A DNA stretch of 64,000 bases from a virus: IMG/VR virus record IMGVR_UViG_3300029787_005452, positions 96,001 through 160,000 of that record; one strand, given 5' to 3'. Positions 24,806 to 63,583 of the stretch are shown piece by piece. How positions within the stretch are numbered: position 1 is the stretch's first letter; every line of letters starts with the position of its first letter. The translations under genes were made by a program, and so were the position numbers. Under the pieces are notes generated by a model. It was not told the origin of the DNA and searched no databases. It saw only the letters and a program-made list of their open reading frames with translations.

Positions 24806-24980
24806 TACAATGACTAACACCAAACTCTTTAAAAGAGGTGTATTATATACGTTGAACAATATTAAACCATTAGAGGGTAATATTGTGTATACATTTAAAG
24901 TTGGTAATAAACTAAAAGAAGTGACGTTTAAGAACGTAGAACAAGCAGATCAATGGTTAGAAAAAATTATAGTAAATTAA
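24771..24980 (+). CDS. Small hypothetical protein
   Basis: 69 aa ending at convergent gp14 stop. Confidence 0.5.
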   Translation: MKFIPGTKFINNTMTNTKLFKRGVLYTLNNIKPLEGNIVYTFKVGNKLKEVTFKNVEQADQWLEKIIVN

Positions 24981-25765
24981 TAATAATCCCCATATACATC
25001 AGTATCGTTTACTGACATATCAAAAACATCTTTCTTACTAATAGCGTCAACGTCATATTGGTTATAGTTATCTTTTTTACCTTGACTTTCTTCATTGGCT
25101 CCTCCAGATAATCTACCTGCAAACGATTCTTCATAAATTTGACTATTGCCTGATATACCACTAGTTAAATTATTGAAAGGTATATTAGGTTCAAAGCTAT
25201 AATCTAATCGTTTTGCTTTTATTAAAAATACATAATGACCTTGTAAAGGGTTAATTTGAGCTATATCTTGATCTAATTTTTCAGTTATTTCAAAATATTT
25301 CGGTTGTCTATCACTAGGTCTATCATCTCCATACTCACTTAACTGGAATACATCACCGGCCTTAGGTTCTATAACATTAAATTGCTTTTCATATACTGAA
25401 CTTAAAGTAAAGAAGTTATCATAGAATGAAGATATATGAATATAAGCAGTTACCTCATCATCACTTTCAAAACCAAATTTAGAAAGCTGTATTGCATTTT
25501 CATTTAAAGTTACTGCTAAAATAATTTCTCTTGGTTGAGCAAATATTTTAGTGGTTTCTTCTCCGTAAAAATTATCAGCACTTAATAAGTTGTATGTATT
25601 AACAAAGTAATTTACTTTAGTTCCGTATAAATTTATTTGCTCTCTCCAATAATTAGAAAAAAGAGTACGTTCATTCGATTGTATAGACTTATCTGTGAAT
25701 CTAAAACAAGTTTCATCAGTCTGTACAATTCCTGGAAAATCACAATTATAATTAGGTTGACTCAT
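24977..25765 (-). CDS. gp14: Neck / head-tail joining protein (gp14-like)
   Basis: EQINLYGTKVNYF, NFYGEE, LSKFGFESDDEVT, EPKAGDVF match the gp14 pattern. Confidence 0.75.
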   Translation of the reverse strand: MSQPNYNCDFPGIVQTDETCFRFTDKSIQSNERTLFSNYWREQINLYGTKVNYFVNTYNLLSADNFYGEETTKIFAQPREIILAVTLNENAIQLSKFGFESDDEVTAYIHISSFYDNFFTLSSVYEKQFNVIEPKAGDVFQLSEYGDDRPSDRQPKYFEITEKLDQDIAQINPLQGHYVFLIKAKRLDYSFEPNIPFNNLTSGISGNSQIYEESFAGRLSGGANEESQGKKDNYNQYDVDAISKKDVFDMSVNDTDVYGDYY

Positions 25766-26103
25766 TTTTCAATAACGAATTTTTTTAATTTTTCATCAAA
25801 ATATAACTTAATACCAGTACTACCCAATTTTTTTACTTCACCTTTGAAAGGTATTACATTATATTCTTTTCTTATATATTCAAGATCAGGGGTACCGCAA
25901 ACTTTTTTACCTGAGCCTTGTCTTAAAAGTTCAATATTTGAATTTTTAGTTGGGTCTGTTTTAACATAATCAGGTACTATGTTTTGATGAATTCTCATAT
26001 AATGGGGATCACCAGCACCTGGTATAGCCCTTCTATGTCTATGATTTATTCCAGGTTTAGCCCCCTGATATTTATTTTCATAAAATTTGCAAAATCTTAA
26101 CAT
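25762..26103 (-). CDS. Late basic hypothetical protein
   Basis: TAAATA(26109-26114)-N5-ATG; MLRFCKFYE; ATGA overlap with gp14. Confidence 0.6.
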   Translation of the reverse strand: MLRFCKFYENKYQGAKPGINHRHRRAIPGAGDPHYMRIHQNIVPDYVKTDPTKNSNIELLRQGSGKKVCGTPDLEYIRKEYNVIPFKGEVKKLGSTGIKLYFDEKLKKFVIEK

Positions 26104-26117
26104 AATTATATTTAAGC

Positions 26118-61100: not shown

Positions 61101-61689
61101 TACTAGTATTGATAATTTGTTGAGTAAAGAATCTTTTATAGAATTAAAAGATTTAAAGCTTAAAAATGATATGTCTTTTAATTTTAAATTAAATGATGGC
61201 TTAATAGAAGTATTTTTAAACGGTAATTTAGCTGGAATTATAAACTTTACACCTAATAGATCAGCCCTTAATAGACTAATTTTTCCAGATATTTTTTATA
61301 ATACACCTAATATCAAGAATAATCCAATTAATAAATTAATTACTACAGATGAATACTACGGTAAGGGTGGCACTATTAGTAATTTTAAATTATATAATAA
61401 TATATTAGAAGATAATTTTATAGACTTTTTACATTTAAAAGATAAAAAAATAGATAATATTAATTTTGATATAACTACTGGTACAAGGAGTAATGTTGAA
61501 GAAATGAATAATATATATAATGTTAATTTACCAGGTATAAAAAATAATAACTTAAAAATTTATATTAAAAATGCTAATTTATCTAAAACTGATAGAGAAA
61601 AATTTGAAAAGTTTTTGAACAATAAATTAAAAAGAGTTTTACCTTCTAATATAGATACAATTGAGTACGACTTTGATATAAACATATAA
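58183..61689 (+). CDS. Large late structural protein with LamG/ConA-like C-terminal elements
   Basis: TAAATA(58171-58176)-N6-ATG; EVFLNGNL and GGTISNFKLYNNIL. Confidence 0.6.
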   Translation: MPINKKSFKTLEPIFFETPDKDTEIVKDTISTSQGLTLNKYKIFENLNDLKVKNFSVNVLTDEVDYNDFYKYDLDKNFQLLDYNTSIGFNALNNLSASSFLSFDRSKNFNSSLTNIDFYGGADNQSFVLDFIDDKLCTIKGVDNGIIKFLTVLEEESNDLKFTSLTNNYISTSSFMFEYDLDKTNLFITLFKTLTGGGFKVLAPLSGSISLQTPSNDTVGAGTIKISEQQPTITKDNLNSFIFYDKEHNISNETLKNQKNNFIGWYPYEITALSGDVSEGQSQRFINVIDFMNLRNQVSNDNFINPTLPLSGNKVSQKKYSSLLNVDNKEFENEEMLLGYNFFTKEYNFLPDKYTKFTLPDSLFPYRRLNINDSNLSKAGAYAGNSPYFSDKVFKLLDANKNKNRGAGDLVNIILLEDKGFLLLQNGFKLGNEDYNDPGDTDNNGSLLCSWLSGNSNEEGIWFDRYYNPQKVSYLTAITGVEEQAFEKQSQAKRYFKQNGIDSVFYDIKSNLVFEPRATYFYQRIGEKYINKIIDGIDGKLIKDTFNLKLSGQELFNEPELVFDKKAYDITDFDLFNLKDFNISFDLKLDTLKSLDSYQIFGNLYQDGFALKNNFYFTPFIFIPQGNKLIIYDKDFNLLTENTYSSISAIKDVLYLEQHNNIVIVGNDKIIKTSFTGELLDQRLLNTSILGDSTINSIISSYDNRYFYDYNRVLFLTRGDDQIKSLDLNNLSLSSSKNERLSSGSSIIQNASGDFVPLTGFRGKYLNNDTGVALTDRNTILFQNIENSTTLGNLSTNRHVYDINTYDEKLYIQSFTTNPASSGFIHVFSSERDLLSTINLSTSAVSGASLDFVNDDGKIKVLSFGKSSSGNLIVDKIDVEDPYKSENTRTYSLPLTTNNISFDNGQHPTYYFNPVNFQSIYFKHKERQNKLHFVVSLDTFFDSSLNKTKWNTAGYTYTNPQTALSGWGTSFLTTSIDNLLSKESFIELKDLKLKNDMSFNFKLNDGLIEVFLNGNLAGIINFTPNRSALNRLIFPDIFYNTPNIKNNPINKLITTDEYYGKGGTISNFKLYNNILEDNFIDFLHLKDKKIDNINFDITTGTRSNVEEMNNIYNVNLPGIKNNNLKIYIKNANLSKTDREKFEKFLNNKLKRVLPSNIDTIEYDFDINI

Positions 61690-61690
61690 A

Positions 61691-63583
61691 ATGAAAAATA
61701 AAAATACAATTTACGAAACAACAGTTAGTGAAAAGGTAGGTTTTACCTCAGGTAATGAATTTGCTTTAACAGGTAGCAATTATATTGGTTATTATAATAT
61801 TCTTGATAATAAAGCTTATGCAGGAAAATTTAATAGAGATGTACTTTTACAGCCATATGGTACTATTGAAACAAGAATTATTTTAAATAAAGATTTAAAC
61901 TTCGATAGAGTAGTTGAAGATGGAATTTTATTACCTTTTGAATTAAATGAAATTTTATTTCAACCTAATGAAATAGTTAATAAAAATACTCTTAATTTAA
62001 AACTTACTCAATTATTTGATAATTTTACTGAAATATTTAGATATGGAAAATTTCCGAGTCCTAAGATACCAGTACAATTTACCGGATTTGCTCTTTTATC
62101 ATCAGATGGTCCTGCTGCTGGTTATAGTAATACGTACATTAAATGGGTACCAACAAATACTGAATTGGTATCAGCAGCAATAGAAACTGCATCATTTGGG
62201 AATTATAATGAAACATTTAATGGTACGGATGATATTAATCTTGATATATTAAAGAATAAATTTGCAGATAAGTATACTATATTTTTATCTGCAAAAGATA
62301 CTATCTTTTCATTTGAAGTGGATGACCCGGGTATAGGCGAACAACATACAACGTTTAATTTTATTGCAAGTGCTAATGCAGTAGGCGATTATAAAAGTTT
62401 ATCATTTAATAAAATTTCTAACACAGCAAATAATAGTAGAAATACTTTATTTGTAGCTGATTCTGGTAATAATACTATTACAAAGTTAGATGTTACAAAT
62501 ATAGTTAATTTGGATAGAACTGGTATTAGAGATTTTAAATATATCGAACAAATTGGAGGATCTGGAAGCAATGAAACGAATTTTCAAAATTTAGAAAAAA
62601 TTATATACGGAGGAGATTTTATATATACATATGATGCGGGTGAAAAAGTTATAAAACAATTTACTGAAGATTTAGTTTTTATTAAAAAATATGTAAATAA
62701 TAAATTATTCGAAAATAATAAATTTGTAAATTTTGCTTATAATATTTTTAATAGAAATTTGTATATATTATTTGCTAATAAAAAAATAGTCGTGGTTGAA
62801 ACTGAATATTTTCAAACAATAGATGAATATACTCTGGATCAAAATAATTTTAATGATGAAAAATTAGAAAAAATAATCTTTTCTGAAAATAATTCTAACA
62901 TATACTATATACAATCCAATTTCGGAGTTTATAAATATCTTTTAAGCCGTAAAAATAAATTAATAGCTGAATGGCAATTGCTAAAAAATGTAGCTTTTTC
63001 ACCTACATGGGAACAAACTAATTCTATATATAACTTTAATCTAGATAATTGGGAAGGGTTTATGCAAGGACCTGATAACTTTAATTATATTGATATAGAT
63101 GTTTTACCTTCTGATAACAACTTTGATAAATTAGTGTTTATGTCTAAAAGGAATATATTAGAATATTCAGAAAATGAAGAATTTTTAACATTATTCAGTA
63201 AAGATTCACCTGACCTATATAACCTTAATGAAATATTATTTGAATTCGAATACTTTAATTCAATAACTTTAAATACAGCATTGTATAAGTTATTATACAA
63301 TCATAATTTACTATCAAATAGAATATCTAAAAAGGTCTCTTTAAAATTTGATAGAGGTAGAAAAATATTTAATGATATATCACATTTGAACCCTGAAAAA
63401 AAATTAGAAATGACCTTATCTGGTACTGAAAATTTTTATGCTGGTGTTAATGAAACGATGTCCACATTAGTTTTTAACCGAATATTAAAAAGTTTTTACG
63501 ACTATCAAATAGATATATTAAAACTATTACAGGTAGAAACTATTAATTTAAAAAATCCGCCTTTATCTACTATCACCTTTTAA
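61691..63583 (+). CDS. Late structural protein with NHL/beta-propeller-like repeats
   Basis: LFVADSGNNTITKLD, EQIGGSGS, IYTYDAGEKVIKQF. Confidence 0.6.
   Translation: MKNKNTIYETTVSEKVGFTSGNEFALTGSNYIGYYNILDNKAYAGKFNRDVLLQPYGTIETRIILNKDLNFDRVVEDGILLPFELNEILFQPNEIVNKNTLNLKLTQLFDNFTEIFRYGKFPSPKIPVQFTGFALLSSDGPAAGYSNTYIKWVPTNTELVSAAIETASFGNYNETFNGTDDINLDILKNKFADKYTIFLSAKDTIFSFEVDDPGIGEQHTTFNFIASANAVGDYKSLSFNKISNTANNSRNTLFVADSGNNTITKLDVTNIVNLDRTGIRDFKYIEQIGGSGSNETNFQNLEKIIYGGDFIYTYDAGEKVIKQFTEDLVFIKKYVNNKLFENNKFVNFAYNIFNRNLYILFANKKIVVVETEYFQTIDEYTLDQNNFNDEKLEKIIFSENNSNIYYIQSNFGVYKYLLSRKNKLIAEWQLLKNVAFSPTWEQTNSIYNFNLDNWEGFMQGPDNFNYIDIDVLPSDNNFDKLVFMSKRNILEYSENEEFLTLFSKDSPDLYNLNEILFEFEYFNSITLNTALYKLLYNHNLLSNRISKKVSLKFDRGRKIFNDISHLNPEKKLEMTLSGTENFYAGVNETMSTLVFNRILKSFYDYQIDILKLLQVETINLKNPPLSTITF

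Follow-up and report, generated by a model that had tools for sequence, protein, structure and literature searches.

Enrichment of the tripeptide Leu-Ser-[Ala/Gly/Ser] in outer virion proteins of an uncultured marine T4-like phage lineage, a candidate O-glycosylation sequon

The DNA analyzed here is a window of 64,000 nucleotides, bases 96001-160000 of a single contig of 185,197 bp with a G+C content of ~29% (IMG/VR record IMGVR_UViG_3300029787_005452). Positions are those of the window unless genome coordinates are stated. The genome under study, G000, belongs to an uncultured marine T4-like phage without a close cultured relative. No close cultured relative was found at the DNA level, the terminase is at most ~37% identical to that of any of 50,697 phage records, and the tail sheath matches known phages solely across its C-terminal core. 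A curli-like operon is common to G000 and the Pelagibacter phage HTVC008M. An initial annotation of the window had noted that the tripeptide Leu-Ser-[Ala/Gly/Ser] (LS[AGS], the tag) is frequent in the virion proteins encoded at 24977-63583, and had proposed that a phage glycosyltransferase (GT) decorates its serine. In this report, the enrichment, three- to fivefold over chance in the outer tail, neck, and fibre proteins of the phage and its relatives, is verified and shown to occur throughout a widespread uncultured lineage, and the proposed glycosylation is partly supported.

PHROG and Pfam scans of 24977-63583 identified a gp14-like neck protein, the terminase, tube proteins, the sheath, baseplate hub and wedge proteins (gp25 and gp6), a PKD protein, fibre-like proteins, a GT2, a 2-oxoglutarate (2OG) oxygenase, and several large proteins of no family. 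The features that bear on the tag are as follows, with the number of tag sites found and, where given, the number expected from the composition of the protein.

24977-25765, minus strand: gp14-like neck protein (head closure Hc2), 262 aa; 3 sites, 0.22 expected; likewise 3 in the relative G001
29425-31824, plus strand: tail sheath, 799 aa; 4 sites (aa 175, 250, 397, and 412), none of them in the conserved C-terminal core (aa 424-799)
31850-32470, plus strand: fibre-like protein, 206 aa; 6 sites, 0.31 expected; 7-residue spacing, LSSDTLT-LSADVAN-LSANVF
32493-46386, plus strand: inner tail, baseplate-hub, and wedge block (tube, gp48/54-like, gp25, gp6, and a few enzymes); 2 sites, ~5.6 expected, not enriched
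46379-47371, plus strand: PKD-domain virion protein; 2 sites, 0.46 expected
49845-51410, plus strand: structural protein of no known family, 521 aa, directly 5' of the GT gene; 3 sites, the last at the C-terminus
51419-52228, plus strand: soluble GT-A glycosyltransferase, 269 aa (Pfam GT2), with a predicted ppGalNAc-T-like (GT27-like) fold; motifs DSH, AQGMGVFSC, FGGEE, and WMHRFDRP
52250-54022, plus strand: structural protein of no known family, 590 aa; 5 sites, 0.53 expected
54651-55328, minus strand: 2OG-Fe(II) oxygenase, inside the fibre block and two genes from the GT
55267-56122, minus strand: two small proteins, 139 and 143 aa; 2 sites each
56131-58140, minus strand: tail or fibre protein, 669 aa (PHROG tail protein); 3 sites
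58183-61689, plus strand: structural protein of no known family, 1168 aa; 9 sites, 1.87 expected; 9 of 9 kept in G001 at 92% identity
61691-63583, plus strand: structural protein, 630 aa; 3 sites, 0.56 expected

The tag is confined to Ser-rich, mostly outer virion proteins, namely fibres, outer baseplate or large family-less proteins, outer domains of the sheath, and the gp13-, gp14-, and gp15-like neck proteins. In the eleven virion proteins of the initial annotation, 42 sites were counted in 5,457 aa, where ~41 in ~5,460 aa had been reported. The per-protein counts agreed throughout save for the gp14-like protein, which had been credited with 2 sites. As reported earlier, the four sheath sites lie N-terminal to the conserved core. 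In gp6, gp25, the tube proteins, and the portal, 0 sites were counted. The seven sites of the gp15-like sheath stabiliser all lie in a C-terminal extension, and its conserved N-terminal core has none; the sites of this protein and of the sheath fall solely in lineage-specific extensions. In the AlphaFold2 (AF2) model of the gp15-like protein (pLDDT 65.8 overall, ~80 in the C-terminal domain, low in the linker), two of the seven sites lie in the linker, two in loops, and three in strands, and thus they do not share one fixed local geometry.

The significance of these counts was determined by scoring LS[AGS] against the composition of each protein across the 226 genes (60,201 aa) called in G000. 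The whole genome contains 155 sites, 70.1 being expected, and shuffles in which the residues of each protein were permuted globally gave 69.7 ± 8.0 (z 10.6). The virion block, 24977-63583 minus five enzymes, has 45 sites, compared with 15.0 ± 3.8 after global shuffling (z 7.9) and 16.4 ± 3.9 when residues were permuted inside 20-aa windows (z 7.4). For the early block, 1-24980, the values were 8 and 6.2 (z 0.7). When every tripeptide with an expectation of at least 3 was ranked (n = 5,037), LSA was first (53 observed, 16.9 expected), LSG was 5th, and LSS was 21st; LS is the top dipeptide of G000. The proteins in which Ser makes up 8% or more of the residues, for the most part fibres, neck, sheath, and large late proteins of no family, contain 123 sites against 41.4 expected, and the remaining proteins 32 against 28.7. 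Enzymes and the inner tail of G000 are at or below expectation.

Could this excess arise by chance, from composition, from paralogy, or from a word at the DNA level? The protein subset of the initial annotation was picked after the pattern had been seen, and internal repeats are present in some fibres, but such an account is refuted by the observations and we give it almost no weight. The composition-corrected, genome-wide test was run, and the excess that might have vanished with correction did not, since it survives both the global and the 20-aa-window shuffles; composition and local compositional patches are thereby ruled out. LSA is first in an unbiased scan. Clustering of 43-aa windows around the 155 sites gave 131 unrelated groups, one of which gathers 21 sites from Gly-rich fibre repeats; with so many groups, neither paralogy nor internal repetition can be the only cause. 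At the sites, Ser is encoded from both of its codon boxes (TCN and AGY), and the underlying 7-mer counts match those predicted from codon usage, so the signal sits in the protein and is not a DNA word or codon artefact. The excess also recurs in independent genomes and in a dereplicated pool of loci (see below). Two further explanations were rejected: a lipobox (L-S-[GAS]-C), since just 3 of the 155 sites are followed by Cys, and a helix N-cap, since LSD, LSE, and LSP are not enriched.

The enrichment is specific at each of the three positions. In the Ser-rich proteins of G000, Leu is the only residue enriched before S-[AGS], at 3.0-fold, with Ile, Val, Phe, and Met at 0.6- to 1.4-fold. In L-x-[AGS], Ser is enriched 3.0-fold and Thr 1.6-fold. 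After L-S, the values for Ala, Gly, and Ser are 5.0-, 2.9-, and 2.1-fold, respectively, and Thr, Asn, and Asp are not enriched. The pool of 80 loci fetched by GT homology, dereplicated at 60% identity, gave 164, 149, and 177 occurrences of LSA, LSG, and LSS, with 32, 45, and 71 expected, respectively; the three rank 2nd to 4th, behind TTT, with the same preference for L, for S, and for A over G over S. The positions flanking the tag are weakly biased in G000, and in the pooled loci hydrophobic residues are over-represented at -5, -3, +5, and +7. The specificity at the three positions of the tag is typical of enzyme recognition.

The tag was then followed through related genomes. G001, a 57-kb IMG/VR contig mostly 80-97% identical to G000, has 75 sites where 28.6 are expected. 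In the alignment of the two, 60 of 79 sites are kept, compared with 46 expected from tripeptide identity, and two fibre pairs that are only 52-57% identical retain 3 of 4 and 4 of 6 sites. Sites lost in G001 mostly changed Ser to Thr, giving LT or LST. The sites are thus under selection. Enrichment of at least 2-fold was found in 25 of the 35 loci, among the 80 fetched, that carry at least 1,500 aa of Ser-rich protein. In whole contigs, the excess in Ser-rich proteins is 2.8-fold in G005 (TerL identity 84%), 2.6-fold in G003 (TerL identity 52%; complete, 212 kb), 2.1-fold in both G007 and G008, 2.35-fold in G009, and 1.85-fold in G010, and the Ser-poor proteins of these six contigs are at ~1-fold. 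T4, P-SSM2, HTVC008M, Mosig, Pseudoalteromonas phage XG4, and marine virus AG-345-L05 gave 0.65- to 1.35-fold, with ranks in the hundreds or thousands; all six of these T4-like genomes are without an orthologue of the GT at 51419. Since the relatives have the excess and the six controls do not, the tag is not a generic property of phage fibres and belongs to one broad uncultured lineage. Judged by terminase identity, that lineage reaches from G000 down to ~50%.

Over the larger distance from G000 to G003, conservation of individual sites is uneven. All three sites of the gp13-like adaptor are kept. The four sheath sites read LTT, LTS, LTA, and LNP in G003, which has three further sites elsewhere, and gp6, with 0 sites in G000, has three in G003. 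The positions of the sites therefore turn over while their density persists. Among 104 gp15-like homologues of at least 50% identity, the mean is 2.95 sites against 0.47 expected, and one LS[G/A/S] column is retained in 84 of the 104.

Several other repeated words were observed in these genomes. A 1335-aa fibre of G005 (100870-104877, minus strand, locus L179) is built of 16-residue repeats, NNLTAITLSATDIKAS, and has 25 LS[AGS] and equally many N-L-T triplets. A 361-aa protein of G003 (72474-73559, minus strand, locus L166) contains the repeats NPLSAYSISQDALSAPLYIQNGKIVLG, which we take to resemble the beta-spiral repeat of the adenovirus fibre shaft (PIYTQNGKLGL). In G003, G007, G008, and G009 (L163-L173, L187-L196, and L205-L222), the top tripeptides of Ser-rich proteins are SNF, NFL, and FLG (for FLG, e.g., 26 observed and 4.7 expected); these form a word, SNFLG[Y], that was not seen in G000 and may be a fibre repeat signature. 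In Mosig (L135-L141), LSG is the top tripeptide of the Ser-poor proteins (23 observed, 8.0 expected), scattered at no more than 2 per protein, and LS[AGS] as a whole is not enriched in the Ser-rich set.

The initial annotation had placed a GT2 inside the virion block, together with two more GTs and a nucleotide-sugar pathway in the window, and the GT2 was recovered by the PHROG and Pfam scans. The AF2 model of the 269-aa enzyme at 51419 has a pLDDT of 95.3. In a Foldseek search of the PDB, the best E value was 8.5e-16, and at least the top 50 matches were all ppGalNAc-Ts. Alignments to ppGalNAc-Ts with VIA-align gave Z scores of 23.4 (254 of 269 residues, rmsd 2.9) and 22.3 (247 of 269); the next-best family, chondroitin polymerase, gave 18.9. 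The enzyme is thus predicted to fold like the protein O-GalNAc transferases, over the full length of the GT27 catalytic domain. D89-S-H91, F181-G-G-E-E185, and W207-x-H209-R-F-x-R-P are invariant among 33 homologues, and from the fold we take DSH, AQGMGVFS(C), FGGEE, and HRFxRP to be the probable counterparts of the GT27 motifs DxH, PTMAGGLFS, WGGEN, and GHVFR. The protein starts at strand 1 and has no lectin domain and no membrane anchor; Pfam finds PF00535 alone.

This enzyme has 656 metagenomic homologues, with homologues on at least 592 IMG/VR contigs, and no tblastn match at E ≤ 1e-5 in the 50,697 phage records. Homologues of 42-45% identity were found in G002, G004, and G006, which are phages unrelated to the T4-likes (TerL identity ~25%), with the gene lying among replication genes. 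At a locus of the non-T4 clade, L024:7168-12336, the GT27-like gene lies 3' of a primase, a dNMP kinase, and a PD-(D/E)XK nuclease and 5' of a weakly matching EF-hand/dockerin-like protein, a setting that is early or replicative, not structural. In G002 (L142-L148) and G006 (L157-L162), the IMG/VR contigs behind L028 and L088, the triplet [A/P]-S-G is enriched ~3-fold (76 vs 25.6; 71 vs 24.2) across ~20 proteins each.

The genome carries additional machinery for glycan synthesis, both inside and outside of the window.

10428-11084, plus strand: Glyco_tranf_2_5 glycosyltransferase (GT2_5), in all tag-bearing genomes and not in nine genomes without the tag
17129-20219, plus strand: nucleotide-sugar genes, encoding an RmlD-like reductase (clade-specific), a small ORF, a short-chain dehydrogenase/reductase (SDR) epimerase, and an NDP-sugar 4,6-dehydratase
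Genome 42159-54317 (L184:2162-14317), outside the window: a co-oriented glycan island with two SDR epimerases, a UDPG-dehydrogenase-like protein, a formyltransferase, a PIG-L deacetylase, a GT47-like protein, a GT2 pair, and an AAA_28 protein

When gene content was compared, 28 G000 proteins proved to be common to G003, G007, and G008 and missing from nine untagged genomes. The 28 include the GT2 pair g51675/g52442 (genome 51675-53209), the AAA_28 protein that adjoins it, the RmlD-like enzyme, and the GT2_5 at 10428. Two AAA_28 proteins, a DHH phosphoesterase, and several proteins of no family also belong to the clade-specific conserved set. g52442 is present in G009-G011 as well, i.e., in every tag-bearing genome, and is absent from the nine untagged ones. 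By this distribution, the GT2 pair appears to track the tag better than the enzyme at 51419. Among cultured phages, g52442 is closest to the right-arm GTs of cluster F/I mycobacteriophages, which account for 324 of 357 records (~30% identity). Its match to Che8 gp110 is marginal (E 0.011 over 49 aa), and no significant match to Che8 gp108 or gp109 was found. For the GT2_5 at 10428, there was no tblastn match at E ≤ 1e-5 in the 50,697 phage records. Rhamnose as the sugar donor is a guess from the RmlD-like genes.

We propose, with a probability of about 0.45, that LS[AGS] is an O-glycosylation sequon on outer virion proteins. The serine would be the acceptor of the O-glycan, and a soluble phage GT would act in the cytoplasm, late in infection, with Leu at -1 and the small residue at +1 as its recognition sites. 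The other transferases and sugar-nucleotide enzymes of the phage would then extend the glycan into a coat. We infer that the tag is read by an enzyme and that the mark is a sugar, and likewise which enzymes may be the reader, the candidates being the GT27-like enzyme at 51419 and the clade-specific GT2 pair at genome 51675-53209. The sharp requirement for Leu and Ser favours a short linear tag that a protein reads over a packing motif, as does the recurrence of A, G, and S where a conserved site is allowed to vary. Further arguments in this direction are that the sites are restricted to exposed parts and lie in many unrelated contexts, that positions turn over at kept density, and that other fibre-rich phages lack the tag. 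O-Glycosylation of Ser would be the most likely mark because of the investment in soluble glycan synthesis and the presence of a protein-O-glycosyltransferase-like enzyme in the fibre operon. More tentatively, LS[AGS] could be the true sequon of a soluble phage enzyme and one dialect of clade-specific codes (with [A/P]SG in G002 and G006) that direct the self-made glycan coats of abundant aquatic phages to their exposed proteins. A shift of the -1 subsite from clade to clade would be implied if the GT27-like family were the reader.

A number of observations weigh against this proposal. G002, G004, and G006 possess the homologue of the 51419 enzyme and have LS[AGS] ratios of 0.88, 0.94, and 1.41, with no excess; presence of a GT27-like gene as sufficient for the tag is thus ruled out. 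The initial annotation had named equal enrichment in relatives lacking the GTs as evidence against its idea; the six T4-like genomes lacking the 51419 orthologue are not enriched. The original idea that a phage GT decorates the Ser of LS[AGS] is thus partly supported: the tag is real, is under selection, and occurs in a clade with many soluble GTs, but the 51419 homologue is insufficient for it. In a large sister clade (46-50% identity), a poly-Thr, mucin-like tract is a near-constant feature of the gene that immediately precedes the GT27-like gene; in L022-L096 this neighbour is on the same strand, 3-46 nt upstream, with 10-20 Thr in 20 aa (e.g., L047:5984-6796, L058:9447-9980, and L063:9116-9979, each directly upstream). 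Such a protein is a more classical acceptor, and the tag, which strongly favours Ser over Thr, is a poor match to a poly-Thr enzyme. The poly-Thr tract is absent throughout G000, G001, and G005. The poly-Thr neighbours were rejected as tag carriers, their LS[AGS] richness being inconsistent. The GT tree does not cleanly part tagged from untagged loci, several "untagged" loci being mere flanks without fibre genes. All of the tagged genomes belong to one broad lineage, and thus correlations between GTs and the tag are confounded by ancestry. The tripeptide carries little information, and ~30 sites occur in non-virion phage proteins with no avoidance there. Finally, many sites fall inside fibre repeats, and in two other columns of the gp15-like alignment the Ser of S-G is nearly invariant while residue -1 varies among L, V, I, and F, which is turn-like.

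These last observations lead to a different explanation, in which no enzyme reads the tag and Leu-Ser-small is a packing or turn element, with a buried Leu and the Ser and small residue at a strand end or corner, inherited for folding in the fibrous and beta-sandwich decoration folds used by this lineage. The periodic repeats are in keeping with it, whether of 16 residues (NNLTAITLSATDIKAS), of 7 (LSADVAN), or like the adenovirus shaft (PLSA...PLYIQNGK), and so are the hydrophobic residues at -5, -3, +5, and +7, which suggest a strand-turn-strand. It would also account for the invariant S-G with L, V, or I before it, and for a tag that tracks phage lineage and not the mere presence of a GT27-like gene. 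However, a packing motif is normally tolerant, and Ser-small shows no overall enrichment after Ile, Val, Phe, or Met, just as LSD, LSN, and LST show none. The 131 unrelated contexts, the mixed secondary-structure states within one model, the lack of an excess in fibre-rich T4-like phages (T4, P-SSM2, and the pelagiphages), and the turnover of positions at kept density also speak against a structural element, which we regard as less likely than glycosylation but as a serious competitor. The tag might instead be read by something other than a GT, such as an AAA_28 kinase-like protein, the 2OG-Fe(II) oxygenase, an acyl- or phosphotransferase, an assembly chaperone, or a virion docking partner. 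Specificity and virion restriction would be the same as for a glycosylation sequon, the clade-specific set supplies the two AAA_28 proteins, the DHH phosphoesterase, and several family-less proteins as candidates, and the oxygenase gene at 54651-55328 sits inside the fibre block. Far more phage genes go to glycan building than to any other modification, however, and HTVC008M, with about a dozen 2OG oxygenases, has no tag. The exchange of S for T suits a hydroxyl acceptor, although it would suit phosphorylation equally. A non-GT reader is in our judgment less likely than either of the other two explanations.

Glycosylation of virions by phage enzymes has a precedent in mycobacteriophages. In Che8, Corndog, and Myrna, it was demonstrated chemically on capsid and tail-tube subunits (Freeman et al. 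2023, as cited in PMC11256854 and PMC12363180), and PMC12363180 names the Che8 transferases that are essential for glycosylation of the capsid. Che8 gp110 and Corndog gp38 are the essential transferases of this type of system. Soluble phage-encoded GTs are described there as decorating the structural proteins of the phage itself in the cytoplasm, and G000 likewise encodes GT2, GT2_5, GT47-like, and GT27-like enzymes together with sugar-nucleotide enzymes. The two cases differ in their hosts and in the tagged proteins, which in the marine T4-like G000 are fibres, neck proteins, and outer sheath domains. To our knowledge, virion glycosylation is chemically established for only a few mycobacteriophages, and we know of no tripeptide sequon for their system nor of a sequon for any phage.

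Other glycosylation systems resemble the proposed one in part. The ppGalNAc-Ts (CAZy GT27) initiate mucin-type O-glycosylation and read short linear contexts around Ser or Thr. They are the best match to the enzyme at 51419 over nearly its full length, but that enzyme is only 14-19% identical to them, and is a predicted cytoplasmic phage protein with neither lectin domain nor anchor; moreover, the general preference of GT27 enzymes is for Thr and for Pro-rich contexts rather than for Leu-Ser-small. The HMW1C N-glycosyltransferase acts on N-X-S/T, and the heptosyltransferases TibC and Aah act on the repeats of TibA and AIDA-I. As in the reading that we favour, a soluble cytoplasmic enzyme there marks many very short motifs on large fibrous surface proteins before assembly; these enzymes belong to other families (GT41 and BAHT), use other acceptor atoms or motifs, and have beta-helical bacterial adhesins rather than virions as substrates. 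General O-glycosylation in Bacteroidota is directed to many unrelated proteins by a three-residue Ser/Thr motif, D-(S/T)-(A/I/L/V/M/T), and proceeds in the periplasm by en bloc transfer from a lipid-linked glycan. Asp at -1 is not enriched here, D-S-[AGS] being at 0.9-fold in both G000 and the pooled loci. In sequon-directed O-glycosylation generally, a short motif around the acceptor is over-represented or conserved in targets and absent from other proteins, and LS[AGS] has such a distribution, with the remaining proteins of G000 at expectation.

If a phage enzyme does read LS[AGS], then sequon-directed glycan coating would be common in widespread uncultured marine T4-like phages, with effects on host recognition, particle stability, grazing, and adsorption to marine polymers. 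There would also be a small soluble relative of the mucin-type O-glycosyltransferases in the bacterial world, with a defined peptide code that would be useful for glyco-engineering. Recombinant proteins would allow a direct test of this claim, with no need for phage culture.

One additional sequence feature was observed among the large proteins of G000. Those encoded at genome 28836-31025 (plus strand) and 174619-176550 (minus strand) are otherwise different but share the C-terminal word EGY[E/Q]LSAV[E/Q]xx, which may be a common C-terminal module or signal.

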